Positions 10,755-36,763 of a DNA stretch of 64,000 nucleotides are shown in pieces. Each line of letters begins with the position of its first letter. The first letter of the stretch is position 1. The translations under genes were made by a program, and so were the position numbers. Source of the DNA: Candidatus Uhrbacteria bacterium (GTDB taxonomy: Bacteria; Patescibacteriota; Patescibacteriia; UBA9934; GWF2-40-263); assembly GCA_016188425.1 (NCBI GenBank), contig JACPHX010000016.1, forward strand, positions 22,161-86,160. Direction: 5' to 3'. Under the pieces are notes generated by a model, which did no database searches, was not told where the DNA came from, and saw only the letters and a list, made by a program, of their open reading frames with translations.

Positions 10755-13700
10755 CTAGCGGTTGGATATGAGAGGGACTAAGCGCATTTGGTGATCGATG
10801 GATGGAGCCGCGGCGCGGGCGGCGGTTGGGTCGAAAACATCCCGGTTTACTTGGGAGAGCGGTATCCCCTTTTCATAGGAAGAGACGAAGGAATCCGATA
10901 GGTCGTCCACGGCTTTTTGCCAGCCAGGACCGAAATAGTCGTGCGCCACTGCCTCTGTCTCAAGCGGATACAGGATTCCTCCCGCTCCCACGCCATACAC
11001 CTTGGGATCCGACACAACCTTCACCATCTTTCCCGGTCGGTACAGCACGTCCCCCGCCAAAGGAACGGCCGCGAGATCCTGTTCAGGAATGATGATGAGC
11101 GATCGGTAATCCGAAAACCAGGTAAAAAATATGCGCTCATTGGGGAAGGCGTGGCGCTCCCCATCCATGCCGAGGTAATACACCGTCCGGCAGGGATGCG
11201 TGAAATCTTCCCACCCAGGACACTCAAATTTGAGGAGAGGCCCGCCAACCGGCTGCGCAAAAATGTCGTAACCAAACGTAGAACGTATGGATGCCTCCAG
11301 TACCTGCCGTTGATTGGTAAGAGCGGCGAGCGTTAATCCACCCGGCAAATCGTAGATGATGGTTGCTCCAACCAAACCACCAAACTGACCGCTCAATGAT
11401 TGGGCGCGGGCGAAGAGTACATACACCCCTTCTGCCGCAGGAAGCGTATAGGTCGTTTGCGTCACGCCCCCTTGCATGGGCTGCCACAGCGCCCCCGCAA
11501 ACGTCGGGTCGGGAGAAATCTGGTTCTGGCTTGCTCCGTAGGATTGATAGGTAACCTGGATCACGGGAGAATCTGTCACTGACGCTCCCCCATTTAGGAG
11601 CAGACGCCCCGCCACGGGCGCCATGGTCGTGAGAGCAGAGGCGCGCGGGTTTGGGGGTGGGGGCGGGGCGACCGATTGGAGATAAATGAGATAGGACGCT
11701 CCGCGATCTGCTCCAGAGGAACTTTCAGTCGGGGTGCCTGTCAAAAAATCCGGAACGCCATTCCCATCCAAATCACTCACCATGGCGACCGACCTCCCAA
11801 ACCCGCCGGGGGATGGAATCTGCGGGGATCCGGTTCGGTTCGGAAGAATATTCATGGTACGAATGATCGTCCCGTCCGCATTGAGAAAATGGACATACGC
11901 CGCCCCCATATCCGTTCCGATCGTATCTGTCCCAGGGGCGCCTACAACCAAATCTTGAATGCCGTCCGCGTTCACGTCCCCCGCAAAGGCAACGGAAGCG
12001 CCATACTGGTCCCCTGCCATCACCGGAGCGCCAAAGAAAGTTTGTCCTGTTAATTCAATCGTCCTTTTCACGGACCCGTCCATATTCATGAGATGGATGA
12101 ACACGCTCCCCTGTTCTTCCCCCAGAACCAGCCGCTCCGGAGCGCCAACGGCGAGATCCTGGACGCCATCATGATCGACATCTCCGATCAGCGTCACGGA
12201 CTGGCCATAGCCTTCATCAATCCCAAGACCAGCCGGCCCATTGGGAGAAAGATTGTTTATGGAAACCGTCCGTTTGACCCGGCCATCCGCTTGCAAGAAA
12301 TGAATATACACATTGCCTGCGCCGCCGTTTGCAAGCGGAGTCGACACGGCCAAATCCGCGATCCCATCGCGATCTAAATCCCCTACGCCCGCAAGCGAAG
12401 TCCCGTATTCGACTCCCGCGGAATGCAACGGACCATTTGGCGTAGCAGAATTGATCTCCGCTGTGCGTTGGATGCTTCCATCCCGGCTCATGTAGTGGAT
12501 GAATACCGCACCTTGGGCCATCCCTGGGTTTTGATCATGTGTCGCAGAAACGGCGATCTCTTGAACGCCATCGCGATCCAAGTCACCAATCAGAGTCATG
12601 GCGCTTCCGTAGCGATCCTTGGGGAACAGGAGCGCGCCTCCCCGGGTAAAGGCATTCAGTTCCGTTGTTTGCTTCACCCGTCCGTCTGCTCGAAGGAAGT
12701 GGATGTAGGCAGACCCAACTTCGATGCCTCCTGTATTGTCGTCTGGAGATCCAACCAGAACATCGGCGACACCGTCACGATCCAAATCCCCGATGCTGGT
12801 CACAGAACTTCCATACTGATCCAAATCCGACAGGACAGGGCCATTCTCAACCGCCTCGCGAATGACGACCGATCGATTCGGCTCCGCGTACGAGTATGTC
12901 GCCGTCCTCCAGGAGAAGGCATTGCGGCCAACCACCGCATCAGGAAAATCTTCCTCGGCGAAAATGCCTTTAAAAAGCCAGCTGTCGTCCACATCGATAA
13001 AATCATCGGCCACCTCTGCCCCGACGACATTCAAAAACGCAGGCGTTCCAGAGACGGTCGAACGAATGCGCAGCCGATTCGTCGTGGAAACGCCGCGTGC
13101 CTCAAACCGATGCAGGATGGATTGGGTGATCATGGGCTCAAACAGAACCGTTTGCGCTCCGATCAGATCCAAATCGTAAAAGGTGTTCGACCCGAGTATG
13201 GTTTGCGTATTGGAAGGGCGATCGAAAATGAAATGTGCGGTTCCAGGATCAAACCCGCCCGTGAGATGCCGGAAGTCCCCGGAGATATGAACGGTTGCCG
13301 TCCCCGCATGAACCGTGCCTCGATACTCGTTGCGCCATCGTATGGTGCCGACGTTCAAATCGACGTCGATGGTCGCATCCGCTTGTGAAGCGTTACCGTC
13401 GAAGATGGCTCCATGGTCCACGACCGCCCCGACGCCAGGCGCCCCGCCCAAACAGTTCTGCCAGTTCGCGGGCGTGCTCCATTTTCCGTCCCCGGAGGCG
13501 TTGATCCAGATACATTCTGCCCCAGGCTCCCCTGGGCCATCCGGATCCCGGGGAGAAAAAGGAACAAAACTCACATACACCACCCCCTTCTCTACTCCAG
13601 TCGCTTGTTCATGAGAAAGACCGGACGCAAAATCCACGAGCCCATTTTTATCCATGTCCCCCAAGGCCGAGAGCGACATTCCCAAACGAGGAAATCGCTG

Positions 13701-15518
13701 GATCGAACTGACCTCTGGAGTGCTTTGCACGATAAATTCTGTTTTTAGAACGGATCCATCTGCGGCCATCTGATGCACATACAGGCCGCCGACCGGCGCC
13801 CCATCAACATCCCTCCCCGGGGCGCCGACAAGCAAATCGGGGACGCCGTCCCGATTATAATCACCCACGCCGATCACCGCGTGCCCATAGGCATCAAAAT
13901 CAGAAAGCTGCGGACCGTTCATGGTCGTCTTGTCGATGAATACCGTCCGCTTCACGCTGCCATCCGCATTCATCAAGTGAATATACAGCATGCCGCGATC
14001 TGTCCCCCCTCCGTTAGTAAACGGCGCTCCAACCGCCATGTCCGTCACCCCGTCGCCATCAAGGTCACCGATGGATCCGAGCGCAAACCCGTATCTCCCG
14101 TTTGCCTCGAGGCCCGCCGGTCCGTTGCTGGTCAGACGATCTATCGTAACGGTCCGTTTCACGGAACCGTCTGTTTTCATGAAATGAATGAACAGCCGGC
14201 CAAATTGGCCATCTGCCCCGCTGGCCCCAACCGCCAGATCCGCCACCCCATCGGCATCGATATCTCCCAGCGAGGCGAGGGAGGATCCGTAACGATCCCC
14301 CGCCACAAGGACGGCTCCGTTTGGCGTGAGGCCATCTAGGCGGATCGTCCGGCTGATGCCGCCCGCGAGCGTGAGCGAGTGAATTTGCACGGCCCCCGCC
14401 CCTCCGTTTGCCCCCGGAGAACCAACCGCCACCTCCACGGCTCCGTCATGGTTCAAATCCCCCACCGCTGCCACCGACGATCCGTACAGATCCCCGGCCG
14501 CAAGCGCGGGACCATTGGGTGTGGCGGCGGTAATTTGTGCGCTTTGCCTCACAGACCCATTTTGATTCAGGAAAGAAAGATACGCCGACCCTGCCTCCGG
14601 GGCCGATGCATCGTTGTTGGGCGAAGCCATGAACAGATCCGTCGTCCCATTGCGGTCTACATCTCCCACATTGGCCACCGCATAGCCGAACCGGTCACCG
14701 GCAACAATGCCTTGAGGCCCATTCACGACCGAACCGTCAATTTTGATAAAAGGAGCCCGACTGGGTTCGGCATCCCGCCCTGGGGCAAACCATAAACGGT
14801 TATTCCCGCGATTTTGCGAGTTCTGCGGATTGAGTGGACGCACCCCGTCCTGCACGAGCCATTGGTCTTGCACGTCTACGTGAGTCGCGCTCGCTGCTGC
14901 CCCTTTCACGTTGATGATGGACGCGAGGCCGGGGATACGCGAGACGATTTTCAATGGCTGGCCACCTGTCACTCCCGCGGCCTGAAAAGCGGCGGTGACG
15001 CGTGTCGTCACCCCTGGCTCCAAGACTATGGTTTGTCCCCCCAAAAATCGAAGCGTTGAAAAAGCAGTCGCCCCTGTGATGGTTTGAGAGGAACCGGCCG
15101 CACCGTCAAACACCACCGTAGAGGTAGCTGCGACGAATGTCCCTCCCAAATGGGAAAAATCCCCTTTGATTTGCATGGTATGGGTGCGCGCCGTGAAGAA
15201 ACCATTGTAACTTTGCAGCATCCGGAAAGAATTGATGGAAACTGAACGGTCTAAAAAAGCATTCGATTGAGAAACCGTGCCATCAAAAACCACATCCGCC
15301 CCCGTAACGATCCCTACCCCAGGCACCCCTCCCAAACAGCCGCTCCAGTTCCCCGCATTGTTCCACAACTGCGTGCCCGCCCCATTGGTCCACGTACAAG
15401 TGGCGGGAACAGCAGAGCGACCGATGCGAATGCCGTAGAAGGCAATGACAACCGCCGTCAAAAAAACACACGCAAGGACAGAGGAACGGCGACGCGAAAC
15501 AGCGCGGAAGGAGAGCAT
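10755..15518 (-). CDS. Giant membrane-anchored FG-GAP (integrin-alpha-like) repeat protein, 1587 aa
   Basis: N-terminal TM anchor. The N-terminal module is duplicated (CTWTNGAGTQLWNNAGNWSGCLGGVPGVG / CIWINASGDGKWSTPANWQNCLGGAPGVG). Roughly 20 FG-GAP-type repeats follow (YGSS..xxGDxDxDGVxDLxVGAP), then a Pro-rich linker and a ~230-aa C-terminal domain. Confidence 0.75.
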   Translation of the reverse strand: MLSFRAVSRRRSSVLACVFLTAVVIAFYGIRIGRSAVPATCTWTNGAGTQLWNNAGNWSGCLGGVPGVGIVTGADVVFDGTVSQSNAFLDRSVSINSFRMLQSYNGFFTARTHTMQIKGDFSHLGGTFVAATSTVVFDGAAGSSQTITGATAFSTLRFLGGQTIVLEPGVTTRVTAAFQAAGVTGGQPLKIVSRIPGLASIINVKGAAASATHVDVQDQWLVQDGVRPLNPQNSQNRGNNRLWFAPGRDAEPSRAPFIKIDGSVVNGPQGIVAGDRFGYAVANVGDVDRNGTTDLFMASPNNDASAPEAGSAYLSFLNQNGSVRQSAQITAATPNGPALAAGDLYGSSVAAVGDLNHDGAVEVAVGSPGANGGAGAVQIHSLTLAGGISRTIRLDGLTPNGAVLVAGDRYGSSLASLGDIDADGVADLAVGASGADGQFGRLFIHFMKTDGSVKRTVTIDRLTSNGPAGLEANGRYGFALGSIGDLDGDGVTDMAVGAPFTNGGGTDRGMLYIHLMNADGSVKRTVFIDKTTMNGPQLSDFDAYGHAVIGVGDYNRDGVPDLLVGAPGRDVDGAPVGGLYVHQMAADGSVLKTEFIVQSTPEVSSIQRFPRLGMSLSALGDMDKNGLVDFASGLSHEQATGVEKGVVYVSFVPFSPRDPDGPGEPGAECIWINASGDGKWSTPANWQNCLGGAPGVGAVVDHGAIFDGNASQADATIDVDLNVGTIRWRNEYRGTVHAGTATVHISGDFRHLTGGFDPGTAHFIFDRPSNTQTILGSNTFYDLDLIGAQTVLFEPMITQSILHRFEARGVSTTNRLRIRSTVSGTPAFLNVVGAEVADDFIDVDDSWLFKGIFAEEDFPDAVVGRNAFSWRTATYSYAEPNRSVVIREAVENGPVLSDLDQYGSSVTSIGDLDRDGVADVLVGSPDDNTGGIEVGSAYIHFLRADGRVKQTTELNAFTRGGALLFPKDRYGSAMTLIGDLDRDGVQEIAVSATHDQNPGMAQGAVFIHYMSRDGSIQRTAEINSATPNGPLHSAGVEYGTSLAGVGDLDRDGIADLAVSTPLANGGAGNVYIHFLQADGRVKRTVSINNLSPNGPAGLGIDEGYGQSVTLIGDVDHDGVQDLAVGAPERLVLGEEQGSVFIHLMNMDGSVKRTIELTGQTFFGAPVMAGDQYGASVAFAGDVNADGIQDLVVGAPGTDTIGTDMGAAYVHFLNADGTIIRTMNILPNRTGSPQIPSPGGFGRSVAMVSDLDGNGVPDFLTGTPTESSSGADRGASYLIYLQSVAPPPPPNPRASALTTMAPVAGRLLLNGGASVTDSPVIQVTYQSYGASQNQISPDPTFAGALWQPMQGGVTQTTYTLPAAEGVYVLFARAQSLSGQFGGLVGATIIYDLPGGLTLAALTNQRQVLEASIRSTFGYDIFAQPVGGPLLKFECPGWEDFTHPCRTVYYLGMDGERHAFPNERIFFTWFSDYRSLIIIPEQDLAAVPLAGDVLYRPGKMVKVVSDPKVYGVGAGGILYPLETEAVAHDYFGPGWQKAVDDLSDSFVSSYEKGIPLSQVNRDVFDPTAARAAAPSIDHQMRLVPLISNR

Positions 15519-15555
15519 AGATAGGAACAGTATACAGCAAGAGGACGGATCTCTT

Positions 15556-18500
15556 TTAGGTTTTGAGGGAGGAGGCGTGAGGTGGGAGGGTGTCCGGCGG
15601 AGCCGGATCCGGCTCCGCCGGAGAGAGTGACGGGGAAGGCTTGTGTTGTGCTGTTCCGGAGGGGAGAGGGCTCATGTCTACACGCATGCTCAACAGTTCC
15701 GGCTGTTTGATAGAACGATAATCGATAGGACGCACCTCGGTGGTTTGATACCCTTCCTTTTCGAAGGTGGCGTAATACTCGTTGGGACCAAGAAGGAAGT
15801 GGTAGCGTCCGTTGCGGTCGGTAAGACGGGAGTCGATAAGCTTGTTGTAGAGCGGCTCAAACACACGGATAACAGCATCTCGCAACGGTTTTTTCGTGGA
15901 CTTGTCATATACGATCCCCCAGCTCTTCGGTTTGCGCGGGCGAACCAGAACGAACACAAGAACGAGCAAGACGACCTGCAAAATGAAGACACCGATTGTG
16001 AACGCAGAAGGATGAAGAATAAGGACGACAAGCGCCAACACGACGCTCGCCCACGAGAGCGCCGACTCAAGGCGGCGAAGGCGACGTTTCCAACGAATAC
16101 GCAACGCTTCTTTTTCTCCCTTTTCCAAAATGGGATCTAGCGGGATATTGGCGCTAATAACGGCGTTTTTATCTGTCACGCGGATCACCTCGCCGTGATA
16201 GACATCCAAATATTCGCCATCCGTACGAACTTTCTTGAGCCATTCGCTTGGGAAGGAAAACTCCGGCTTGGTCACTTCAATTTGATACTCGCCAGGATCC
16301 GCCAGAAATTCATACATCCCATCTTTCCCAGTGACCCGCGTACGCACCACCTTCGCGTCGGGCAAACGCAGGAGACGGACGACCGCCAATTCAACCGGCA
16401 GCTTTATCCCCGAATGGTACACGACCCCGTATCCTTTTCGTTTCCGCTTAAAGAAAAGACGCAGGGGTTGGGTGAACAAGAGCTGAAGGAACGGCCACAG
16501 TTGGAATTGCAACAACAGAAAACCGATACTGATAGCAGAAAGCGGAACGAACATGAAAGAGAAGCCATCAGCAATCCCGCTCAACAAAGCCCACAGCGAA
16601 AGCTCCGGCCCGGGAATCATAATCTGGGGGTTGATGATGCGGTCTCCATCATCCTCAACCGGCGACCACCCGCTTCCAAGGAGATCCTTAACTCCCTCCA
16701 CGGAATACCGTCCGGCAGGAACATACCAGTAAAAACTGCCATCTACTGGAGTTTCTAAAGGATTCTGTTGGAAAAATGCCGCAATGTTCATGGGGCGATC
16801 TAGCCCGAACTCACGCACATACAGCCGCGCAGAGGCCCCCGAGAGCGGCTGGATAATGCCATCTTGATTCCGCCACACCAACCGGCCGCGCGGCTGCGCC
16901 TCCAGCACATAAGAAAACGACTGCTGCGTGCGATCCTGATAGGTCACCAAGAGAAGCAGGGCGTAATTGCTGACGACGGCAGGGACACGCAAGGTTCCGA
17001 CCCATCCACGATCATCCGTGACCAGCGAGGAAGAACTCGTAGAAAAGTAGGCGTCTATCTTTTCGATCGCTTTGGTTCCCTCATCTGGAATGAGACGCAC
17101 TTGAACGTCTGTATCCACCACCGCGCGGAAACGAATTTCCTGAAGCGGCAGTTCGATTGTCTCGCTTTGTACAAGGAAATGATTCTCTTCCCCAGAAAGC
17201 TCCCCCGGGCGAAGCGGAAACGCCGTGCAATCAACCGGACAGGTCAGAATACTCTCCCCTTTTCCGCAAAATCCGTTTCCACACGCGATGGTGCACCCAG
17301 GGCCGACGCAAATGGGACAGGCCGACCCTACGCAAGGGAGCGGGCAATCCCTCACGCAACTTGCCGGGTCTTCACCGATGCCGCAGACGAGATCACCGCA
17401 GACGGGCGCGCATCCTGGCCCCGTACACGCAGAACAGCCAGGACCGACGCAGGCCACACAATTTGGCCCTGTGCACGGTGCTGGACAATCGATAATGCAG
17501 TTGGCGAGATCCTCCCCGATGCCGCAGACGAAATCTCCACAGACGGGCGTACAGCCAGGGCCCGTACAGGACGCCGGGCAATCGATAATGCAGTTGGCCA
17601 AATCTTCATTCAGGCCGCAGATAAAGTCTCCGCAAAAACCGTTTGTCTGCAATAAGGTTTTGCACGCAATATCTCCCGTCTGGTCAGAGAGAGCCCCGCT
17701 TTGTGACAAGTAGCGCGCCGTATAGGTCGTATCTTGCTGCAACCCGGTCACGGGGAAGGAATGCGAAATGACATACGCGTTGTTCACGAGATGCACGTTC
17801 TTATTGTTGGGATCTGCGCCATACAGCACATCCCCGTCCGCAGGGATATTCGTCTCCCATGCCCAGGTAAGCGAATTATACGAAACGTCCTCGCACCGAG
17901 GGTTGGAAATAAGCACCGGGACGCCAGAGGGACAAACGGGGGTGGCATTGGTAAACGCCCCTGTATAAAATTGGTTCACGCTATCGTACCCGAACACCCC
18001 GTAATAATACGTCGTCCCCGAAACCGCGCTTGAATGGACAAACGTCGTGCTGGCACCATCGTACAGCACGGTTCCGTCATTCTCATCCGCGGGGTAGGTA
18101 TCCGTCCTATACACCACGCGCGCGCCCACCAAAGGCGGAGGAAGCGTCCAGGTTAAACTGTTCTGGCAAAACCCCGGCGTCACGGTAACGGTTATGGGAG
18201 TAATCGGGGGCAAGCCGAAGGGGATGCCGGAATCCAGCGCGATGGGCGCGAACGACCCATTGCTATCAGAGGCGAACGCCGCGTAAAAATATTCCTGACC
18301 GGATACGATCCCTGGGTGCATGAGCGAGCTTCCGGGGCCATCATACAAAAACGTACCATCGGCAATACTGACTGGATAACGATCCAATCGATAAACGATG
18401 ACGGTGTCGACATAAGGAAATCCGGAGGGCGAATACCACGCCAAGTTGTTTAAATACAGCCCAGGCGTGACATCGAGCACTAAACTGACAACCGCGGAAC

Positions 18501-19704
18501 AATCCGGAGTCTGAAACACCAAATCGGTCGATTCGTTGGTATTTCCATCCTGGTCCGTCACGGCAATTTTTGCGCGATACGCGGTTTGGGGGGAAAGCCC
18601 GCTCAACGTAACCGCATGCGAGAGCGCGGGTGTGGAACTCAAAACGGGGCCTAACCCGTACAAGGGAGTAAGCCCATACACCACCGAACCTGTCGTGGGC
18701 CGGTTGGTATCCCACACGACCGTTGCTTCCGTGCAGGAGAGCAAATTGACATGGGGAGCAAGAATAAGCGGATCGGTTGTGTAGGGGGTATGGAACGTGA
18801 GGGTGAGAGCGGCAAAATTGTTACAAAAATCTTCCGAAGTGATCCGCGCCTCATAATCCATTCCAGGGGTGAGCCCGGTAAGGTTGTAGGAATGAGCTAT
18901 CACCAACGATCCGCTGAAAAGCGTCCCGTCATAGGGCGGAGTCGGTGCAACCCCCCAAGAAACCTGGTCGTTGGCATTCTCGTTGGTGGACCACGAGACG
19001 ACAGCAGACGTTGGGGTGATCCCTGAAATACTCGGGTTGATAAACAAAGGCGCGACCGTATCGCTGCATCCGCCTCCTCCGCCCGGGGGAGGCGCCGCTC
19101 CTACCGAGGCCGTAATCTCCACTTCATCATCCGACACGATAGAGATGGCCGCTTGGTTGGCATCCCCAAACCCGCCCGTCACCGCGACCTCAAAATTCCC
19201 CTCGACCGCAGGATTGACGATCTGATTCACCCCTGCCCCGCCGAAACCGCTGATCGTACCAACCTCGATTTGCACGCAGCGTCCTCCCGGTATTTCTCCG
19301 GCCGCCGCGTCCGTGGGAGGGGTAAAGGCAATCTCCTGCCCCGCAATCCCCACGCCCCAAATACCAGCCGCTGCCGCAACCGCCAGCGTTTCATCCGTAA
19401 ACGGGCCATCGCAAGCCCCGTCGTCATCCACGGCAAAATCAAAATCCAATGGGCTTGAAAGCGCGGTTAAGTCCCATCCTGCCTCATACACCAACTTCAC
19501 GGTATCGGTGGAACTGTCGACCCCCGTAGGCGTCACGAAACGAACGACGTGATTGGTCACTTCTCCTGTCGATTGCGCACTCGGAGTCACGGAATAACTG
19601 GTCAAGATCGCGGCAAAGGCAACGGAGACAAATTGGAACAATAAGGCGGTGGAAACACCGAGAAAACTCACCCAAACTGCTTTTCGTAGCATCGCGATAG
19701 TCAC
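15556..19704 (-). CDS. Giant surface protein, 1382 aa: signal/anchor, FN3-like domains, three tandem Cys-rich CGDFVCGxGEDxxNCxxDCP repeats, then multi-TM region with two carboxypeptidase-regulatory-like beta-sandwich domains
   Basis: Hydrophobic N-terminus. FN3-like segments (VVSWSTNENANDQVSWGV...YEARITSED). The Cys-rich repeats lie at about nt 17200-17650. C-terminal TM helices are interleaved with GVVYHSG...EYQIEV and GIVYDKST...EYYATFEKEGY modules. The last ~20 codons are contributed by palindromic element family 2. Confidence 0.7.
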   Translation of the reverse strand: MTIAMLRKAVWVSFLGVSTALLFQFVSVAFAAILTSYSVTPSAQSTGEVTNHVVRFVTPTGVDSSTDTVKLVYEAGWDLTALSSPLDFDFAVDDDGACDGPFTDETLAVAAAAGIWGVGIAGQEIAFTPPTDAAAGEIPGGRCVQIEVGTISGFGGAGVNQIVNPAVEGNFEVAVTGGFGDANQAAISIVSDDEVEITASVGAAPPPGGGGGCSDTVAPLFINPSISGITPTSAVVSWSTNENANDQVSWGVAPTPPYDGTLFSGSLVIAHSYNLTGLTPGMDYEARITSEDFCNNFAALTLTFHTPYTTDPLILAPHVNLLSCTEATVVWDTNRPTTGSVVYGLTPLYGLGPVLSSTPALSHAVTLSGLSPQTAYRAKIAVTDQDGNTNESTDLVFQTPDCSAVVSLVLDVTPGLYLNNLAWYSPSGFPYVDTVIVYRLDRYPVSIADGTFLYDGPGSSLMHPGIVSGQEYFYAAFASDSNGSFAPIALDSGIPFGLPPITPITVTVTPGFCQNSLTWTLPPPLVGARVVYRTDTYPADENDGTVLYDGASTTFVHSSAVSGTTYYYGVFGYDSVNQFYTGAFTNATPVCPSGVPVLISNPRCEDVSYNSLTWAWETNIPADGDVLYGADPNNKNVHLVNNAYVISHSFPVTGLQQDTTYTARYLSQSGALSDQTGDIACKTLLQTNGFCGDFICGLNEDLANCIIDCPASCTGPGCTPVCGDFVCGIGEDLANCIIDCPAPCTGPNCVACVGPGCSACTGPGCAPVCGDLVCGIGEDPASCVRDCPLPCVGSACPICVGPGCTIACGNGFCGKGESILTCPVDCTAFPLRPGELSGEENHFLVQSETIELPLQEIRFRAVVDTDVQVRLIPDEGTKAIEKIDAYFSTSSSSLVTDDRGWVGTLRVPAVVSNYALLLLVTYQDRTQQSFSYVLEAQPRGRLVWRNQDGIIQPLSGASARLYVREFGLDRPMNIAAFFQQNPLETPVDGSFYWYVPAGRYSVEGVKDLLGSGWSPVEDDGDRIINPQIMIPGPELSLWALLSGIADGFSFMFVPLSAISIGFLLLQFQLWPFLQLLFTQPLRLFFKRKRKGYGVVYHSGIKLPVELAVVRLLRLPDAKVVRTRVTGKDGMYEFLADPGEYQIEVTKPEFSFPSEWLKKVRTDGEYLDVYHGEVIRVTDKNAVISANIPLDPILEKGEKEALRIRWKRRLRRLESALSWASVVLALVVLILHPSAFTIGVFILQVVLLVLVFVLVRPRKPKSWGIVYDKSTKKPLRDAVIRVFEPLYNKLIDSRLTDRNGRYHFLLGPNEYYATFEKEGYQTTEVRPIDYRSIKQPELLSMRVDMSPLPSGTAQHKPSPSLSPAEPDPAPPDTLPPHASSLKT
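15585..15635. repeat. Palindromic element family 2, copy B, embedded in the 3' end of the giant gene CDS (encodes ...SPAEPDPAPPDTLPP...)
   Basis: 36-bp core identical to 8173-8208. It lies just inside the stop codon (15556) of the 1382-aa ORF. Confidence 0.8.
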
Positions 19705-19752
19705 AAAAAGTCGATAGGAATTACGGGGCTTGGGATAGCTAGGGAAGAAATA

Positions 19753-22700
19753 CTAAGGGGTAACGGGGACAGAGGCGGGATCAATGACCGCCTCTGGTGG
19801 AACGACTGGTTCTTCGGCAACGGGAGGGTCTTCAACAAGAGGCGGTTCTTCCGTTACGGTAGGTTCCTCAACCGCGGGGGGTTCCTCGACGACAGGGGGA
19901 TCGATCGGGTCGGCGGGGGGGTCGGATGGAGGAACAATCGGATCTGTCACAGGATCGGTCGGCGGCATTACCCCTTCGATGGGAGGAGGTTCAACGGCTT
20001 CTTCGACAACATCTTCATGGTCCTTGCGGACGGCCGTGACATGCCAATCGACGACGATGCCGGAATCCATGCCATCAAGCTGGCGCACGGTGAAACCGTT
20101 GTTATCCTTCTGTGAAACATAGACGTACGCGGGGCCGTTGGCAGTCGTTACGACGGAGATAGGTGAGCTTGTCGAGGTAATGTCGTTAAAGGAAGCGTCG
20201 ACATCTTCGAAGGATACAGTCGCTTCTCCTTGTGAGAGGGTCGCGCTTCCCGAAAGGAACACCGAGTGGTCGGTCGTAAGCATGGCATGAGCGGAAACGT
20301 TTTCGTTCTGATAGGAACGAATCACGACATTGTAGGAAGCGACCGTGGCGAAAAGACCCGCCTCGTCCACGGACCAGGTGTTCCCCATGCCGACCAGCTT
20401 GCCGACATCCAACAGATGATTGCCATGGAGGTACACGGAGCCGTACATATCGAGCGAAGAGAGCTGGGCGTTTGAAGAAATGCCACTGGCGACATTGTCT
20501 ATCGGAGCTACGGCCGCTCCCCCTGTGTGCGAAAGGTTGATGAAGGTAATGATCAAATTATCAGGCGACGAGGCCGTGTATGGTTCCATCGCGTAGCCAA
20601 TAACGGGCCCATCCTCGGTTGCCTTCATAGCCACCCCCGGGACAGACGAGGTCGTCAGCGAATCGCCGATCTCAATCGCGCCGTTCTCATCGGTCACCTT
20701 TGTGGGCACGCGGCCAGCAAGGGCGATGGGGAAATCGCCCGCCCGATTGTCACCCGCCAAGAACCCGGGTTTTGTTGAAACGACACCTGCAACGAGGCCG
20801 TCGTAAGTCTTTCCGGTAGATCGCGAGACATGTTCCGTGTCGCTCACCGAGAAAATTACGACATCGCCCGCCTCAAGCTGATCTTTTGAAGGGAACATCT
20901 CTGCAAAATCGTAGGAGCCAGTCCCCCACCCAGAGGCATTGGTGCGCATAAGGTCGCCGCCAGGGCCGGCAGAACCATCGTAATAGATGTATTTATTCGT
21001 CTGCTTCGTTCCGCGGTCGGATGGGTACAAGTTGCCGCCGATCCACAAATCGCCGGCGAGGCTCATCGCGCCGTCTTGGGTAAGGTAAGCGATTTCTTGA
21101 TCAAGACTATCTTTGTAGGAAAGACGGTATTCATTTTTGTCGGTCACTTCCAAGGCAATGCTTATGGCACGATCGACGGCCACGGAGGAGCTACTATCCC
21201 AGGCACTGCCGCGGAAGGCGAGCGCGTGTGATCCTTGGGCTTGATCGACGGCGGTTGCAGCGATGACGCGGTTGATCGCCAGAGCTTGCTCCACCGTGGC
21301 GACAGAGCCATCGTTAGCGATAACGGCGCCGCTGTGCCACGAAGGCTGCACGTACACGCGAATCGTTCCGACCCCAGGCCCAGTCCATGAATCGAGCGCC
21401 ATACCGACCACCATTCCGGGAAGCGTGGATTTCATGCCCGCGCCGGCGGTTGAGGAAGAGGTGATGGGGTCGCCTGGACGAATCGCTCCGTTTTCGTCGC
21501 TGACTTTCAGAGGAACGCGGCCGGCGGTCGCAATGGCTTTCGGATACGTGGCTGCGTCGATAACGCCGCGGCCGTAGCTTTGCGCCGGCGAGGTGGAGAC
21601 GATACCGACGATGCGTGATTCGTAAGGGGTCGAGGATTTATCGAGAACCGTCAGGTCGCTGACTATTTTGCCTCCCGTGAGGATACCGGTGAGCGGCTCC
21701 ACTTCATCGGCTTCGTAGGTGATCGTCGAGTCGGTGGCAACGACCAAGTCTCCCGCGGTTTCATCACCGGTTGTTTCATACCATTCCGCGATGTCATCCG
21801 GGGCGGCGGAACAGACGACGAGTTCACGATCCGTGGCCGTGGTATCCGAATCCGCCCCGCTGTGGCAGACGCCGTTGGTGGTGGCGGCCCCGTTAAAATC
21901 AGTCTTGATGACTCCGTTCACGTCCAAGATCGTGGCGCCGATGGCGATGGTGCCGTCGGTACCGTCGTTGTCGATGGTTTCGCCTTGCTGAAGGGTGATG
22001 TCGGTGGTCATGTTGGCGCCGGCGCCGTTGGAAAAGACGAGGCCGTTGGTAATGGTTCCCGATGTACTATTCACGACAATGCCGTTTGTGATACCCATAT
22101 CCCCCGTCGAATCGATCCGTAGCCCAATGTCGACCGTAATATCAGACAAGTCATTCACATCTGCGTTATCAATATACAGCAGTTGTGAAACATTCGTATC
22201 ACTTACCCCCGCATCGCTGATGTTTTGATTGCGGATTCTAAAGACTTCTTCCGTTACGTTAACCCCACCGCCAACCGGCGCGGTCCAAAGAGTTTCAAAG
22301 GCAGATATAGTACCACCCGTCACCGAGCCAGAAAGTGTGCTTCTGACATCGATTGTGTTTGAAGTCCACGTAGAAGATTCGGAAGTTGAGTAATGTGCCG
22401 TGAGATCAAGAACTTTTCCGATAGAAAAAGAGTCGCCACTTGTGACGTTATCAAAGTTGAAAATGGATCCTGATGATATGGCGGAGGTGACAACGTCGAT
22501 GACGCTACCTGTTGTGGCATTTGACGTAAATGTGAAGGCACCATCTGCAACACCGTTGCTGATGGTTTCCCCATTTTGCAGACGAATGTCTGTGCCAATG
22601 GATAGGCTTGAAAAATTAAGACCAATTGTCTGCGCACCGCTTATATTGATACCGGTCGTGACCCCCGTCCCGATTTCAATACCATCTGAAATCGTGCCTA

Positions 22701-25700
22701 CTGTTCCGCTCACATACAGACCGTTTGTAATACCCATCCCCCCCGTCGAGTCGATCGTTATACCATTGTCAACAATAATATCTGATAAATCATCGACATC
22801 TGCGTTATCAATGTAAAGTAATTGTGAAACATTGTTATCACTCACTCCCGCATCGCTGATATTTTGATTGCGGATTCTGAAAACTTCCTCCGTGACGTTT
22901 ACCCCACCTCCAACCGGCGCGGTCCAAAGGGTTTCAAAGGCGGAAATGGTGCCACCCGTAACAGAACCAGAAAGCGCACTCCTTACATCTATCGTGTTTG
23001 ATGTCCAAGAGGATGATTCTGAAGTACTGTGTTCTGCCGTTATATCAAGAACTTTTCCTATAGACAATGCATCCGCGTTCGTTACGTTGTCATAGAGAAA
23101 GACAGAGCCGACATCAATATTGGTAGATAGGATTTCCAAGATATTTTGATCTCCGTTGGTAGAGGTAGAAGAGAATCGGAATGTCCCATTTATATCATTT
23201 GAAAGCGTTTCCCCATTCTGAAAACTGATATCGGTTCCAATGCCTGTATTTGAGAGATGAATCCCTGTGGTGGCCGCACCAGCGATTTCAATGGCGTCTG
23301 TAAGGCTGCCAGAAGAAGTGGAAATACGGATGGCGTCCGAAACAGCTGCTCCGTTTGTATCGATATGGAGTTGACCGGTTGGAGCGACGATACCAATCCC
23401 CACATTCCCTCCATCCAGCACAGTAAATACTTGCGACGTATTGTCGTAGAGGTTGAAAATATCGAAGGTATTGGTGCCATTGCTGACCGTGAGCGCTCCG
23501 TCTGGGGCAACAAATGAACCTGATTGGTTTCCAATACCAAGGCGAGATTCGTCGTCCAGGCGCATGCCGGGAGAGAAAGTGCCGTCGTCCATGACCCTGA
23601 AGTCGAGGGCTGCGTCTTCAGATCCATTAGTGGGATCAGTATTGTTTCCTTCAATGCTAGCAAAAGTTGTTTGCGTATTCGTATCGTCTTTCGTATCAAA
23701 ATTGAGAACAATATCTTCTGTGCCGGCAGCTGCGCCTCCAAAATTGTCGGAGTTATATAGGGTGAACAACGCGTTTCCATTGGATGCTTCTTCTATCTGC
23801 ATCGCGCCATTTGTTATGTTTGTGATCGTTCCGCTATTTTGGAGCCGAATGTCGGTAAGCGTCCCGATTCCAGTGGTATCAATCACCACACCATCGATCG
23901 CTGAAGCAGAATCGGCAATAACCTCAAGGCGGCCAGCAGGAGCGATCGTGCCGATCCCCACATTCCCTCCATCAAGCACGGTGAATACCTGCGAGGTGTT
24001 GTCATAAAGGTTGAAAATATCGAAGGTATTGGTGCCATTGCTGACCGTGAGCGCTCCGTCTGGGGCAACAAATGAACCTGATTGGTTTCCAATACCAAGG
24101 CGAGATTCGTCGTCCAGGCGCATGCCGGGAGAGAAAGTGCCATCATCCATGATACTGAAATCGAGGGCTGCGTCTTCGGAGGTATCGGTTGGGTCAATAG
24201 AGTTCGCCTCCATGCGCGCGATCGTTGTCTGTGTTCCAACGGTATCTCTTACGTCAAAATTGATACCAACATCTTCGGTACCTGCCGCAGCTCCACCGAA
24301 TGTATCCGCGTTATAGAAAGTAAAAAATGCATTTCCGTTTATATCTTCAATAAACTGCATGGTTCCATTCCCCAAGGACGGAGTGGAGCTAATTTGTAAA
24401 ATATTGTTTGTGGTGTCGTAAGAGATCGTTCCTTCATCTGTCGTACTAGTTCCTATATGTAATGAACCTGGCTGAACGAATAGATCAGCCCACCGATGAG
24501 TGTCGTCTCCCAGAGTCAGAGAGTTGGAGGTTGGTGGAAGAATTGAGGTATCAACGAGTCCGTTCACACTCACCAAATCCGCCGTTGAAGATCCTAAATC
24601 AATATTATTGTTAAAGAATCCGTTTCCAGAACCATCAATCGTGAAGTAATCCGTCGCTCCCCCGTTATTTTCAACCACGACGAGGTTTGATGTCTGGGTG
24701 GCGTTCGCTTGGATAAGAAGCTGAATTTCATCCGCATTTCCATCGGTTGCCAATTGGGCGGACAAGTTCGTCGCAGACCCAACCGTGACATTATCGGTAG
24801 CGGTCGTAAGGCGCACGAGTGTGCCGTCGTCGGTCCAACCGCCTCCACCGCCGCCACCTGCTGACAAATCGACCCAGGTAGTGCCGCTTCCGGCACTTGT
24901 ATTGACCCAAGTGGTGCCGGCTTGATCTAAATAAAGAGAACCCTCATTGGCGGTCACAATGGTGTTTGGATCTCCGCTTCCAGTAAAAACACCAACCGAC
25001 ACTCCCGCGGTAGTATCTGAGAAACGTAAAAATTCATCTTGATCGGCGGGATTTGAGGATTCAATATCCAACAGCGCGTCGGGCGTGGTGGATCCGATCC
25101 CCACGAAACCAGTATTGGCAAAAGTAGCAAAGGGTGTTCCTGCGTCGGCGATTTTGAAGTCTCCAGTGGTCGTCAAATCAAAGGTGAGCCCAGTTGTGTC
25201 ATCGACCTCCATTGTAAGATTCGTGTTGGTGATGGATTGCGCGTACACCTCGTCGAAATCCGGTGTTGTTCCCGCACCAGCCAGGTCTGTCCAAGTGGTT
25301 CCCGCATCTCCCGCGCTGGAGTTGACCCACGCTTTTCCCGCCTGGTCCAAGTAGAGAGATCCGGACTCGGCCGAATGGGTCGGTGTTCCTGTGCCGGTAT
25401 AGAAATCCACTTCATCGGCATTCGTTTCGTCCGTGAGGCGCATCAAGCTCGTATTCTCTGCATCGGAAATATCAATGTAGGTATCAGGAGTGATCGTGCC
25501 GATACCCAGCCGGCTCGTATCGGTGATGACGACGGGATTCGTGCCGAAATAGCGAAGGACGTCCGCACGCACGCTGGCGGCGGTCGACAAATCATCTACC
25601 GCCAACCCGTAAAAGGTTCCCACGGATCCTGCCCCTGTATCGCTCGTTTCGTTCACACTGAAGGCATAGTAGGTATCGATATTCCCTGCCGCCGTAATAA

Positions 25701-28700
25701 TAGGCGTCGTGCGAACCCCATACCCTTCCGTGATCGAGGCCGCCGATTGGGCGGCAATTTGTACATTGATCCCCAAAGCATCGGCGATATCCGCCGCCGC
25801 GCTGGTCGCTTCGCTGCTGATGACAGATTCAAGACCCGTAAGCGTCAGAACGCCATCCGTATCGCCGGCAGCGGTGATGGCTTGGAAATACCCGGCCATG
25901 GAACTGTTCAAGGCGGCGGAGGCATCATACCGGTTCGAAACGCGCAGTACTTGTGTTGCGTCGGCTGAAAGGTCTTCGGCTAAATGAAAGACGCGCGTGG
26001 AAGAGGCGACTTCTCCCAGATCCCCGCCGATGAACCGGCTCCCCATAATGCCGTGGCCTGTCACAAGAAAATCTCCGGAAAGCGTAAGATTCTCGGTGGG
26101 GGTCGTATCTCCAAACCCGGCGAATCCGCTGCTCTTATCCAGATAGAAATCGTCGACGAAGAAGGCGATGTCTGCATTCCCCGTTGCGTCTGAAGCAAAA
26201 TTGAAAATATCCTGTCCTGCATCGGTATAGGTAAGCAGCCCTTCCGCCGTCGCAGAGGTGCCGATATGGAGCGTCGCGGGGCCCAAATACAAATCCTTCC
26301 AGCGCTGGCCGGCCGAGCCGAGGTCGTAAAAATCATCGGTTTCCGGGATGAAATCGGACGCTATATCCGCGTTAAAATCGACGGTATCGGTGGCGTCCGC
26401 ACCGAAGGTGATATTCCCACTGTCATCAAAAAGCGCAAAGGTCGAACTTGCATCTTGGATCGCTATGTCACCTGTGGTTGTCAGATCAAAGAAAAGACCC
26501 GTGGCAGAATCCACGTCCATCGTCTTGTCTCCATCATTGTCATAAACAGAATCCAACGTATCCGCGCCGCCGGTTGCGGCAAGATCGGTCCAGGTGGTTC
26601 CGCTTCCGGCACTCGTGTTGACCCAGGTCGTTCCGGCCTGATCCAAGTAAAGGGATCCTTCATTGGCCGTCACAGATCCATTAGGATCCCCAGAACCTGT
26701 ATATAAGCTGGCGGAGGTGGCACCAAATGTCAGACGGATGTATTCCGCGTCTGCAACCCCTTGTTCCACATCCAGTCGCGCGTCGGGGGTGGCGGTATTG
26801 ATCCCGACGAAGCCCGCTTGTCCACTCACGACGGATCCGTTCACGGTAAAGGCATCAATGCTTCCCCCAATCGCTGTGATGAAAAAATTATCTGATGCTG
26901 AAGCCAATTCCCATGTCAAATCCCCGGAATCGACCTCGATTAATTCTGTTCCGCCCCCATAGTTGTCGTAGGCGTCATCGAGCGTTGGGCTGCTCCCGCC
27001 GCTAAGGTCTATCCATGTATCAGCCCCATCGGTATTGACCCAAGCCGTCCCTCCCGCCCCATCTTGGTCGAGATAGATCGAACCAATGCCGCCAAACGTG
27101 TTAATCACCAGATTCGGATCCCCAGTTCCTGTATAGATACCGGGAATGAGGCCGGAAGTTTGGTCGTTCAGTGAAATAAACTTGTTGTCCTCTGGTCGAG
27201 AAATGGTGGCAAGCGAGTCGGTATCTGGTGTTGATGTCCCAATCCCGAGCCTTCCGCCTTCATCAACGACAAAGCCGGCGCCCCCGAGGTAGCGTATCGG
27301 GAACGTCTCCGTGGCGCCCGCCCCCGTGAGGTCTTCGATGAGCAGGCCGTTAAACGAGTTCACGACGCCGCTGCTGGCCAAATCCGGCCCGTTCACGACA
27401 AACGCGCCGTACGAATCGATGTCGCCAGAATCGAGGATGATCGGCCTCCCGTGGAAGCTGTATCCGGTGGGAAGACTCGCCGTTCCGTCATTGACGACCT
27501 GCCCGTTCACGCCAACCAGCACCGTTGCCAGATCATATCCAAAGGTATCGATGTTCCCGATCGCATTCCCTTCCGTACCGATAAGAGTTCCCAGTTTCAC
27601 TGCGGCTCCAGACGTATTCTGCGCGGTGGCCTGAAAAACGCCGGCGGTATTCCCGGAAAAACCCACCGAAGTCGCGGTAAAACGGGAGGAAGCGCGAAGA
27701 ACCTCATCGCCATCGGCCGTCATGTCTTCCGCCAGATGCAAGACGCGATCCGTGAAAGAGACCTCCCCCAAATCGCCTCCGTTGAACCGATTTCCCATGA
27801 TGCCGTGGCCTGTCACGAGATAATTTCCAGATACGGTGAGGTTCTCGGTGGGGGTAGTATCCCCCAAGCCGACGAACCCGGCGCTTTTATCAAGATATAT
27901 GTCGTCTGTAAAGAATGCGATGTCTGCATTCCCTGTGGCGTCAGAAGCAAAATTAAAAATATCCTGACCTGCGTCGGTATAAGTGAGCAGCCCTTCCGCG
28001 GTCGCAGACGTGCCTATATGGAGCGAGGCAGGCCCTAAGTATAAATCGCGCCATCGCTGGCCGGCAGAACCAAGATCAAAGGCAATGTCGGTTTCCGGAA
28101 TAAAATCCGAGGAGATATCCGCGTTGAAATCGACCGTATCGGTTGCGTCCGCACCGAAGGTGATATTCCCATTATTGGCAAATCTGGCAAATGTGCTCCC
28201 TGCATCCTGAATGACAAAATCTCCGGTCGCAGCCGTGATATTGAAGGTAAGGCCTGCTCCTCCTGCGTCATCGATCTCCATGATGAGGTTCCCATCCGCA
28301 ATCGACTCGGCGTAGACCTCATCGAAGTTATCGACTGTGCTTGCACCAGCCAGGTTAGACCACACGCTCCCCGTCGCGCCGACGGACGTGTTTACCCAAG
28401 TGACGCCAGTCTGATCCAGATAGATGGACCCGCGCGCCGCCGTCACTCCGCCATTGGGATCCCCGCTTCCCGTAAGAATTCCCGTGGAAGCGCCATTTCC
28501 TGTATCGGTAAGGTTGATATAAACGTCGTCTTCGCCCGCATTGGCAGATTCGATGTCGATGGCGCCATCAGGCGTGGTCGTATTGATGCCCAAAGAACTG
28601 CGCAGGTAGGTTTGCCCGCCGGAGGTCAGAAAAAATTGAACCGTTTCGTCTCCAGAGACATCCGATGTTACTTCAAACAGCCGATCCGCATCCGCGGTCG

Positions 28701-30452: not shown

Positions 30453-30462
30453 AATGGGTTTG

Positions 30463-35822: not shown

Positions 35823-35875
35823 AAGAGAGATGTAATGGGGAGTATATCGGCGGGAAGGAGGAAAAACAAGGCGTC

Positions 35876-35922
35876 GGCCGCTAACCCCGAGCGTTAGCAC
35901 TGCTAACGCTCGGGGTTAATAG
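35876..35922. repeat. Palindromic element family 3, copy 2 (perfect 17-bp inverted repeat taaccccgagcgttagc / gctaacgctcggggtta)
   Basis: Lies between the relE-like stop and the ychF start. Related to 4391-4449. Confidence 0.6.
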
Positions 35923-35967
35923 AATTAAAAAGCTCCGCTGGCTGGAGCCGAGACGAAGCGTTCGGCA

Positions 35968-36243
35968 TTAACCCTTTTGTGTCCGGTAAATAGAGTGATC
36001 TCCGACTCGCAACAATACCACCTCGTGATCCCCTAAAAACTGGAATAACACTCGATTTCTAAAATCGACGGAGAATGACCATGTTCCTTTCAAGGGACCA
36101 GATAACTTATGCGTTTTTAAGAGCGGGTGAAACGGATTTTCCTCAAAAAGGCGACCGCGATCTTTCAAAAGAATTTGAATGTCTGACGGTAATTTTTTGT
36201 AGTCCCTCTTGAATTCAGGTGCATAGAGGATAAAGAGATGCAT
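35968..36243 (-). CDS. Type II toxin, RelE/ParE superfamily
   Basis: 91 aa. KLSGPLKGTWSFSVDFRNRVLFQF...VVLLRVGDHSIY is a typical RelE/YoeB-fold mRNA interferase signature. The stop overlaps the upstream antitoxin gene arrangement. Confidence 0.75.
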   Translation of the reverse strand: MHLFILYAPEFKRDYKKLPSDIQILLKDRGRLFEENPFHPLLKTHKLSGPLKGTWSFSVDFRNRVLFQFLGDHEVVLLRVGDHSIYRTQKG

Positions 36244-36246
36244 ATA

Positions 36247-36543: not shown

Positions 36544-36546
36544 TGT

Positions 36547-36742: not shown

Positions 36743-36763
36743 ACCGCCATCCCAAAGTAATAC

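Follow-up and report, generated by a model that had tools for sequence, protein, structure and literature searches.

A recurrent C-terminal membrane module in a stalk-like surface protein of Candidatus Uhrbacteria and in surface proteins of other Patescibacteria

Cultivated Patescibacteria all live attached to other microbes (PMC11623550). Here we describe a gene in a 64,000-nucleotide stretch of DNA from Candidatus Uhrbacteria bacterium (contig JACPHX010000016.1, positions 22,161 to 86,160; hereafter the window, in whose own numbering all coordinates are given) that encodes an exported protein of 1382 amino acids (aa), referred to as the anchor protein, which ends in a membrane module of about 310 aa. 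To our knowledge, little is known about the molecules at the contact surface of Patescibacteria, type IV pili apart. Among described systems, the stalk adhesins and pilins of Gram-positive bacteria built from CnaB, SdrD-B and transthyretin-like domains (SdrD, SpaA, BcpA and TIE of B. anthracis) resemble the anchor protein in their long exported arrays of immunoglobulin (Ig)-like or FN3-like domains on a single-membrane cell, and for both a role in attachment is presumed. They differ in how they are held. Sortase attaches the Gram-positive proteins covalently to peptidoglycan at a C-terminal LPXTG motif, whereas the anchor protein ends in the 310-aa module with three membrane helices and two sandwiches that are predicted to be cytoplasmic. 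The pattern LP.[TSA]G occurs nowhere in the anchor protein and its C-terminus is a Pro-rich tail behind a folded domain, which places it outside the sortase-anchored (LPXTG) proteins.

The WxL/Csc clusters of Firmicutes consist of a small WxL protein, a membrane protein with DUF916 and DUF3324 and a large multidomain WxL protein (PMC9772566). The operon in the window is similar to them in that it encodes a small secreted beta protein, a C-terminal transmembrane (TM) protein with two sandwiches and large multidomain exported proteins. However, nothing in these clusters corresponds to the polytopic anchor module or the TPR membrane protein found here, and no WxL domain was detected in the window operon. 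SlaB, the stalk and anchor of the Sulfolobus S-layer (PDB 8qox_B), and NOMO of the BOS complex (PDB 9c7u/9c7v) are, like the anchor protein, beta-sandwich stalks that tether a large surface or lumenal structure, but both have a single membrane helix with all sandwiches non-cytoplasmic and neither is related to the anchor protein in sequence. The likeness to CarboxypepD_reg (PF13620), as in human carboxypeptidase D (PDB 5aq0), is at the level of the domain only, the anchor protein being without a peptidase; in contrast to that family, its two sandwiches are set between membrane helices, each starting about 6–8 residues past a basic cluster. Clusters of large, signal-peptide-bearing, Cys-rich proteins, some of them with FG-GAP repeats, have been reported in Peribacteria by Anantharaman et al. 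(2016), and a role in rigidity or attachment was proposed for them (PMC4736985). These were noted to have a 'very weak similarity' to Myxococcus repeats (PMC4736985). That paper deals with composition only and contains neither the 4-Cys unit nor the anchor module described here, while the Cys richness of the anchor protein is limited to a spacer of 142 aa.

We consider it rather probable that the anchor protein is a membrane-anchored stalk component of a surface assembly of Patescibacteria, presumably serving attachment, in which the Cys-rich units would act as a rigid, adjustable spacer and the C-terminal module as a non-covalent, pull-resistant anchor. The initial annotation of this DNA, made from the sequence alone, had described a 1382-aa surface protein, and the gene indeed encodes a signal peptide followed by an ectodomain. 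The anatomy of the protein is given below; counts of loci refer here and throughout to 82 related loci, in which neighbours on the same strand were counted.

15556..19704, minus strand: whole open reading frame (ORF) of the anchor/stalk protein, 1382 aa with a GTG start; an ATG at 19692 gives 1378 aa
19612..19704, minus strand: Sec-type signal peptide, aa 1–31, with MLRK, a hydrophobic core and AFA/A; hydropathy segment aa 9–39
19075..19611, minus strand: N-terminal, membrane-distal domain, aa 32–210; no Pfam match at E ≤ 1; present in 42 of the 82 loci
17644..19074, minus strand: FN3-like beta-sandwich array, aa 211–687; three stretches matched by Pfam fn3 and Pur_ac_phosph_N above cut-off; present in 58 of the 82 loci
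17218..17643, minus strand: Cys-rich spacer, aa 688–829; four C-x4-C-x8-C-x3-C cores and CxGPxC linkers
16585..17217, minus strand: two Cys-free, predicted extracellular beta domains, membrane-proximal, aa 830–1040; conserved in 39 of the 82 loci
16453..16569, minus strand: first membrane segment, aa 1046–1084, composed of the hydrophobic TM1a (1048–1066) and then the amphipathic helix TM1b (1067–1084)
16120..16452, minus strand: basic cluster KRKRK and sandwich 1 with its extension (DVYHGE...NIPLDP), aa 1085–1195; Pfam CarboxypepD_reg and SdrD_B; AlphaFold strands 154–252 with a predicted local distance difference test score (pLDDT) >90
15937..16119, minus strand: basic helix RIRWKRRLRRLE, TM2 (1215–1232), the 5-aa loop HPSAF and TM3 (1237–1256), by hydropathy; AlphaFold helices 257–291 and 295–315
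15667..15936, minus strand: basic cluster RPRKPK and sandwich 2, aa 1257–1346; duplicate of the sandwich 1 unit; predicted cytoplasmic
15559..15666, minus strand: Pro/Ser-rich C-terminal tail, aa 1347–1382, taken from the sequence; not conserved among homologues

Hydropathy marks three hydrophobic segments in the 1382-aa protein, at aa 9–39, 1046–1073 and 1211–1259, and the signal peptide would be cleaved at AFA/A, judging from the AXA motif. The 1378-aa product, which starts at the ATG four codons after the GTG, is identical to P0153 of a public library clustered at 50% identity. In the FN3-like array, fn3 (PF00041) matched three stretches with 42–48 bits against a gathering cut-off of 25 in the Pfam scan, which identifies these domains as Fibronectin type III. 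With aa 688–1382 as the query, eleven homologues (P0001–P0011) were obtained, which are 30–41% identical to it and have the same general build, and one of them is named Candidatus Uhrbacteria. The G+C content of the window is 52–59%.

The C-terminal module begins with a hydrophobic segment, which is followed by a basic cluster and a transthyretin-like sandwich; a helical hairpin then leads to a second basic cluster and a second sandwich. The same order of elements is seen in the profile of hydropathy and charge and in the secondary structure predicted by AlphaFold. The initial annotation had proposed that TM helices alternate here with two carboxypeptidase-regulatory-like sandwiches. This part of it is well borne out: hydropathy confirms that hydrophobic helices are present, the AlphaFold model shows the seven-stranded transthyretin-like fold, and CarboxypepD_reg (PF13620) matched two stretches in Pfam, scoring 50 bits against a cut-off of 32.3 with the best match at aa 1263–1329. 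The two halves of the module are homologous to each other (aa 1087–1140 against aa 1257–1310, 39% identity, E 1e-11), and the module is the product of an internal duplication. The same building plan is seen in the family. Sandwich 1 opens with the strand [WY]G[VI]VY, which lies no more than about 6 residues behind the cluster RRKRK; behind this sandwich a conserved extension, DxYxGE ... NIPLDP, precedes the basic helix into TM2; and TM3 is followed by RRLxxPxKPKxWG[IV]VY and then by sandwich 2. TM1b bears the motif (L)LPFLQxLFTxP in the family profile.

The AlphaFold model of aa 940–1350, calculated with 95 sequences, has a mean pLDDT of 87.9 and a predicted template modelling (pTM) score of 0.62, and contains three beta sandwiches with helices where expected. 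Residues 1–91 of the model (aa 940–1030) form an all-beta domain with pLDDT >90, and the second of the two membrane-proximal beta domains (aa 830–1040) is CarboxypepD_reg-like by its sequence pattern. Structural neighbours of the sandwiches include SleC, B. anthracis TIE, SdrD B, CnaB pilins, SlaB, the N-terminal extension domains of SusC, and NOMO. Template modelling scores relative to the query are ≤0.20, and therefore no solved structure has the whole arrangement of the module. Pfam and NCBIfam hold no model for it beyond the generic sandwich.

An alignment of 12 sequences (A1) was used as the profile of the module. The window protein, which is part of the seed of this profile, matches it with 448 bits over profile positions 31–326 (aa 1051–1346 of 1382) and thus carries the module in full at its C-terminus. 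The 12 sequences are 29–46% identical, and 28 columns are invariant. Two of the homologues, P0008 and P0011, have unrelated ectodomains and the same C-terminal 310 aa. A word-indexed search with the profile found at least 350 proteins, and an exhaustive search of 1.84 billion cluster representatives, taken at the 50% identity level, gave 10,107 matches at E ≤ 1e-3, 5,128 at E ≤ 1e-10 and 2,535 at E ≤ 1e-30. The initial annotation had called the architecture unusual, which is fair in comparison to characterised proteins; within Patescibacteria, to judge from those 2,535 representatives, it is very common. Module-bearing proteins span 300 to 3,595 aa, and in the 131 that were examined the distance from the end of the module to the C-terminus is never more than about 120 aa and usually no more than 30 aa. 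The ectodomains ahead of it are of many kinds and include prepilin-type N-termini (PF07963), DUF4215, cadherin, beta-helix-like domains and GYAWxENxGWINF repeats. Six proteins (P0047, P0050, P0052, P0053, P0055 and P0056) have the anchor module at the C-terminus and, at the other end, a prepilin-type cleavage/methylation helix with a pseudopilin-like domain. By their predicted build, such members would be held in the membrane at either end and so could not extrude into a filament.

In species-representative genomes the module was found at 128 loci, whose titles name Uhrbacteria, Magasanikbacteria, Falkowbacteria, Parcubacteria, Minisyncoccota and 'Patescibacteria group', and the best identity of these to the window protein is 52%. 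Named genomes with the module are nearly all Patescibacteria. Many more metagenome-assembled genomes that carry it are labelled 'uncultured Gammaproteobacteria', which is probably a placeholder label given their chromosomes of 0.9–1.0 Mb, and binning errors probably account for two short contigs that are assigned to other phyla. Text searches of the literature returned no paper on the module or on a matching adhesin of the Candidate Phyla Radiation (CPR). Thus the module is common in databases, but neither Pfam nor NCBIfam has a model of the family, there is no solved structure of it, and text searches found no paper. In comparison to characterised systems it is a new form of surface-protein anchoring, not a new kind of system.

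Lys and Arg residues (K+R) were counted over 117 full modules aligned to the profile, and their distribution around the membrane helices is strongly biased. On average, 0.9 such residues are present in the 15 positions before TM1 and 4.2 in the 15 positions after it; 4.9 are present in the 15 positions before TM2, 0.13 in the 5-residue loop between TM2 and TM3, and 3.2 in the 15 positions after TM3. Taken with the positive-inside rule, a cleaved signal peptide and an exported, Cys-bearing ectodomain, these values suggest that the chain starts outside, that TM1 leads in and sandwich 1 lies inside, that TM2 leads out and TM3 in again, and that sandwich 2 and the tail are inside. The charge bias, read by the positive-inside rule together with hydropathy, therefore strongly favours a cytoplasmic location of both sandwiches, which is supported rather than proven. 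In the window protein TM1a has the properties of a typical membrane helix (mean hydrophobicity 0.70, moment 0.08) and TM1b is amphipathic (mean hydrophobicity 0.39, hydrophobic moment 0.40), in agreement with a helix that lies at the interface, or packs, on the inner side. The prepilin-type members of the family, assuming the standard topology of type IV pilins, have a predicted exported domain ahead of TM1.

We propose that, after Sec export and cleavage of the signal peptide, about 1,000 aa would stand outside the cell, comprising the distal domain, the FN3-like array, the Cys spacer and the two further beta domains. The chain would cross the membrane once through TM1a, and TM1b would run along the inner face or pack against it as an amphipathic helix. 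Sandwich 1 would lie directly under the membrane and, after the tight TM2–TM3 hairpin, sandwich 2 would come to lie under it as well. With its three membrane helices, three basic clusters and two compact domains in the cytoplasm, the module would form a non-covalent anchor which resists pulling, in place of an attachment through sortase and LPXTG.

Several points weigh against this proposal. The topology of the module is deduced from hydropathy and the positive-inside rule. In the AlphaFold model TM1a is the one poorly defined part (pLDDT <50), and across the family TM1a and TM1b are equally hydrophobic, with a mean of 0.56 each (moment 0.11 against 0.30). It is uncommon for transthyretin-like or CnaB-like domains to be cytoplasmic, and the structural neighbours that were found are all extracytoplasmic. 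The absence of Cys from the module is no guide to its side, since the extracellular residues 830–1040 are Cys-free too. The AlphaFold model of the distal domain (8 sequences, pLDDT 42.6) was unusable and says nothing about a ligand. The gene order in the window also departs from the conserved order of the operon presented below, with a giant gene before the anchor gene, an FG-GAP gene after it and the operon split.

If TM1a and TM1b formed a hairpin like that of TM2 and TM3, the module would cross the membrane four times and the sandwiches would be located outside the cell, where they would continue the stalk while the two hairpins stitched the protein to the membrane. The equal hydrophobicity of TM1a and TM1b across the family is in line with such a topology, the conserved D/N-L-L-P between them could be the turn of a hairpin, and the neighbours of the sandwiches (CnaB pilins, SdrD B, SlaB, SusC N-terminal extension domains and NOMO) are all extracytoplasmic stalk domains. 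However, about 12 conserved Lys/Arg per protein would then have to be translocated and the cytoplasmic turns would be nearly uncharged (K+R 0.13 to 0.9), contrary to the positive-inside rule. Moreover, the basic clusters stand directly at the helix ends, as in stop-transfer anchors, and TM1b of the window protein is clearly amphipathic and weakly hydrophobic. We regard four crossings as rather unlikely.

With the sandwiches inside, the module may also be imagined as a transmembrane signalling or coupling device, in which contact or tension at the ectodomain would be passed through the three-helix bundle to the cytoplasmic sandwiches and a partner, in an integrin-like, outside-in manner. The charge bias supports the cytoplasmic placement that such a device needs. 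The conservation of FPS, DxYxGE and NIPLDP in and after sandwich 1, and of polar residues in the membrane helices, is strong and seems to go beyond the needs of a simple anchor, and the module is joined to many kinds of ectodomain, pilin-like ones included. Against this, the only match in Pfam and NCBIfam is the sandwich fold, with no kinase, nucleotide-binding or other output domain; the operon has no conserved gene for a cytoplasmic partner across the 82 loci; and the conservation could equally be a constraint of folding or packing. A signalling or coupling role appears unlikely to us. Still more doubtful is its extended form, in which the module would be a Patescibacteria-specific coupler, mechanical or signalling, between a host-contacting fibre built by the operon and the cell interior, in the manner of a prokaryotic functional analogue of integrin-type adhesion receptors in episymbiotic, ultra-small bacteria; as it is joined to so many kinds of ectodomain, it would then be a general surface-to-cytoplasm 'plug-in' of this phylum.

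We return to the anchored stalk and its spacer. The stretch of aa 688–829 contains 28 Cys in 142 aa compared to 10 in the other 1240 aa of the protein. All 38 Cys lie within aa 98–826, so that the last 556 residues are Cys-free, and the other Cys of the ectodomain occur two per domain or at domain boundaries. The Cys-rich stretch noted in the initial annotation is therefore real, but its description as three near-identical, EGF-like units of about 35 aa with 6–8 Cys each has to be replaced by four cores of 19 aa with 4 Cys each, C-x4-C-x8-C-x3-C, with the pattern CGDxxCGxxEDxxxCxxDC.

17578..17634, minus strand: Cys core 1, aa 691–709, CGDFICGLNEDLANCIIDC
17485..17541, minus strand: Cys core 2, aa 722–740, CGDFVCGIGEDLANCIIDC
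17344..17400, minus strand: Cys core 3, aa 769–787, CGDLVCGIGEDPASCVRDC
17227..17283, minus strand: Cys core 4, aa 808–826, CGNGFCGKGESILTCPVDC; the most divergent of the four

The cores are separated by linkers of 1, 3 and 2 'C[TV]G[PS]xC' mini-units (between cores 1 and 2, 2 and 3, and 3 and 4), and because of these their start-to-start spacing is irregular (31, 47 and 39 aa). The pattern CG-x3-C-x8-C-x3-C has exactly four matches in the six-frame translation of the 64-kb window, all of them in this stretch, which argues that the cores are not a product of chance. As units of 24 aa, the copies are pairwise 38–75% identical in protein and 43–71% in DNA, and where the residue is identical, only about half of the codons agree at the third position. 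Tandem Repeats Finder, run over 14000–20000, reported no array in 17200–17650 even at score 30, and a repeat search detected three copies of 77 nucleotides with 69–74% identity at spacings of 141 and 93. The units are thus neither near-identical nor the clear DNA tandem repeats for which they had been taken; the low DNA identity and the disagreement at third positions suggest old duplications kept by selection at the protein level. Over 17 units from five proteins the consensus is xxCGDGxCxxxESxxSCxxDCP, with C, G, C, E, C, D and C invariant. As to the position of the stretch, FN3-like domains lie upstream and the membrane module downstream as originally described, but the two Cys-free beta domains of aa 830–1040 stand between the stretch and the module.

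Among relatives the number of Cys units varies from 0 to 7. Units were found by tblastn in 7 of the 82 related loci, and in 26 of 142 family representatives, where 1–7 copies are always located between the FN3-like region and the membrane-proximal domains. The CxGPxC linkers are absent from the homologues P0001–P0004, no wider search for them having been made. When a two-unit profile of the Cys core was run against a set of 5.8 billion proteins, 10 ORFs of 35–81 aa were among the matches listed; this search appears to list proteins of up to about twice the query length only, and says little about the spread of the unit. We read the stretch as a dispensable stalk spacer of variable length and copy number, in which the number of 4-Cys units and CxGPxC linkers would set the length and stiffness of the stalk.

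The units are most likely stapled by disulfides, since they are predicted to be exported and the Cys elsewhere in the ectodomain come two per domain. The window also encodes a CcdA/DsbD-type membrane protein (56977–57771, plus strand), whose gene overlaps by 4 nucleotides that of a thioredoxin-like protein (57768–58916, plus strand; AhpC-TSA/Redoxin and Thioredoxin_10). By its looks this pair is an extracytoplasmic thiol-disulfide pathway that may bear on the folding of Cys-rich exported proteins, and its presence fits the disulfide reading. CPR bacteria of groundwater inhabit reducing settings, in which extracellular disulfides are less secure, and the cores, with four Cys in C-x4-C...C-x3-C and an invariant Gly, Glu and Asp, could instead be metal-binding knuckles for Zn or Fe, or for Ca through the conserved Asp/Glu. 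We consider metal binding improbable, as the units lie between the signal peptide and the first membrane segment and are exported, the paired Cys of the other domains fit disulfides, a thiol-disulfide pair is encoded nearby, and no zinc-finger or metal-site model in Pfam matches.

Small tandem extracellular Cys-rich units are also found in EGF-like proteins and in the Myxococcus repeats (DUF4215/TIGR02232), and the CG[DN]G start and conserved Glu of the Cys unit recall the latter; its spacing of x4/x8/x3 is different. At E ≤ 10, aa 688–829 gave only a chance match to AllH in Pfam (E 3.5), with no match to the EGF clan or to DUF4215/TIGR02232 in either Pfam or NCBIfam, and the canonical stretch of the homologue P0002, run against Pfam only, gave none. 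The whole anchor protein matched no EGF family in Pfam at E ≤ 1, and a PDB sequence search with the stretch found no relative. That the stretch belongs to one of these described families is therefore hardly credible: it resembles them superficially, as a tandem of small Cys-rich units with a CG[DN]G start in an extracellular stalk, but no EGF-clan or other Cys-repeat model, DUF4215 (PF13948) and TIGR02232 included, matches at E ≤ 10, and 4 Cys in 19 aa contrasts with the six Cys in about 35–40 aa, with C-x-C, of an EGF domain. The unit recurs in relatives of the protein and has no model in Pfam or NCBIfam. Taken alone, the Cys repeats are of modest interest, as a recurrent 4-Cys unit that has no name in the databases. 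The initial annotation had thus overstated the Cys stretch and undersold the membrane module, and had missed both the charge bias and the variable copy number of the spacer.

The anchor gene lies in a conserved surface-protein operon. For this reason it is sensible to read the protein, as the initial annotation suggested, as the base of a surface assembly that is embedded in the membrane, an exported stalk being combined here with a membrane module. The neighbouring genes of interest are the following.

10755–15518, minus strand: exported FG-GAP protein, 1587 aa, with many FG-GAP repeats, integrin-alpha-like, 205 bits; 37 nucleotides downstream of the anchor gene
19753–29388, minus strand: giant exported protein, 3211 aa; 48-nucleotide gap to the anchor gene
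29484–30527, minus strand: 347-aa protein, DUF916-like; two beta-sandwich regions lie between a signal peptide and a C-terminal TM helix with its basic tail
30463–31674, minus strand: 403-aa secreted protein, whose N-terminal domain (aa 36–220) resembles that of the anchor protein
31850–32515, minus strand: 221-aa secreted beta-rich protein, ending in ...IATSNF; no Pfam match
36986–39358, minus strand: multi-TM protein of 790 aa that ends in a TPR domain and has about a dozen hydrophobic segments; matched by Pfam in the TPR part only
39697–46914, minus strand: second giant gene, 2405 aa, paralogue of the 3211-aa protein

A TM-anchored relative of the 347-aa gene is present directly upstream of the anchor gene in 58 of the 82 loci, and a relative of the small secreted 221-aa protein in 43. 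Directly downstream of the anchor, the N-terminal 300 aa of the giant protein are found in 54 loci; its C-terminal ~700 aa were found in 28 and the TPR membrane protein in 23. The contigs of P0003 and P0004 have a common order: first come two proteins of about 300 aa each, one secreted and the next with a signal peptide and a TM helix at its C-terminus, and then the anchor homologue, the giant protein and the multi-TM TPR protein. The two giant paralogues of the window have in common an N-terminal region and the C-terminal ~700 aa, and these regions are 41–45% identical to a 2012-aa protein of the locus L001 (for the 3211-aa giant, 41% over 724 aa by BLASTP). The 790-aa TPR protein is 34% identical to a 788-aa protein of L001; elsewhere it is the last gene of the conserved operon, and in the window it follows the second giant gene. 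As in other genomes, this giant gene and the TPR gene adjoin RmuC, while the part with the small-protein, 347-aa and anchor genes lies about 5 kb beyond them, with the additional giant gene (19753–29388) inserted ahead of the anchor gene. The genes for PolA, DNA polymerase III delta, RmuC and an Asp/Glu racemase in 34758–53025 are the same as the operon neighbours in L001 and L002. In a scan of the operon, promoter-like and terminator-like sites were no more frequent than in shuffled sequence.

The DUF916 likeness of the 347-aa protein is seen more clearly in its family than in the protein itself, which with 22.2 bits does not reach the cut-off of 27.3 for WxLIP_PGBD (DUF916); among 39 members of the family, 18 match this model at E ≤ 0.01, weakly, with a best E of 1.8e-6. 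No WxL match was obtained for the 221-aa protein, the 403-aa protein or the last 749 aa of each giant at E ≤ 1, or for the full 3211-aa protein at E ≤ 1e-3, and the small and large WxL-domain proteins which define a WxL/Csc cluster are thus not found here. In two Magasanikbacteria loci (L055:6908-10876 and L056:40-3981) the DUF916-like ORF lacks a stop codon and continues in frame as the anchor ORF, so that its C-terminal TM helix and 'KMARRR' stand directly before the signal peptide of the anchor. Either a real fusion or very tight translational coupling could explain this arrangement, which points in any case to tight coupling of the two. By BLASTP, the N-terminal domain of an anchor homologue resembles aa 36–220 of the neighbouring 403-aa protein. 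The anchored protein probably works together with the DUF916-like membrane protein, the small secreted beta protein, the giant exported protein and the TPR membrane protein as a surface attachment structure.

The C-terminal sequence of the 403-aa protein, '...RFIATATF', is close to those of the 221-aa protein ('...IATSNF') and of the homologues of the latter ('...SGNF'), and the three may represent a shared C-terminal strand motif. The architecture of the 790-aa TPR protein recalls that of GT-C-type protein glycosyltransferases with TPR domains. The 3211-aa giant contains long internal near-repeats, among which '...FNADI[SA]SDFIPETD...LYLGPA[ST]LHIGTSATAEGLLTYTDAGQDIFNFASDATGNADIAFF' occurs twice. 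The giants have no match in Pfam, PHROGs or PDB save a weak one to K1-lyase_C (E 0.033); a phage tail-fibre-like end was considered for the C-terminal 749 aa and dropped, as PHROGs and PDB gave no match and Pfam only this weak one. An integrin-like alpha/beta pair formed with the FG-GAP gene was considered and rejected, because an FG-GAP protein adjoins the anchor gene in none of the 82 related loci and the adjacency is therefore specific to the window genome. A sorting signal of the PEP-CTERM/PGF-CTERM type, suggested by 'LPF' with a TM helix and a basic cluster, does not fit either, since about 270 folded residues follow, and a lead to TasA was abandoned as no TasA (Peptidase_M73) match was found here. 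Farther away, in 60408–62539, genes for tRNA-His and tRNA-Arg flank that of a presenilin/SPP-like membrane protease (60534–61349), and beside them lies a gene for an XerC/phage-integrase-type tyrosine recombinase (61553–62539), which may mark an integration hot-spot or may simply be xerC.

With at least 2,500 clusters at 50% identity, the module is among the more widespread uncharacterised membrane architectures of Patescibacteria, and it would replace sortase-type anchoring on many kinds of ectodomain. If the sandwiches are indeed cytoplasmic, this would be an unusual use of a typically extracytoplasmic fold and would make the module a candidate link from the cell surface to the interior. The conserved five-gene operon is a concrete candidate for an attachment apparatus of CPR bacteria.

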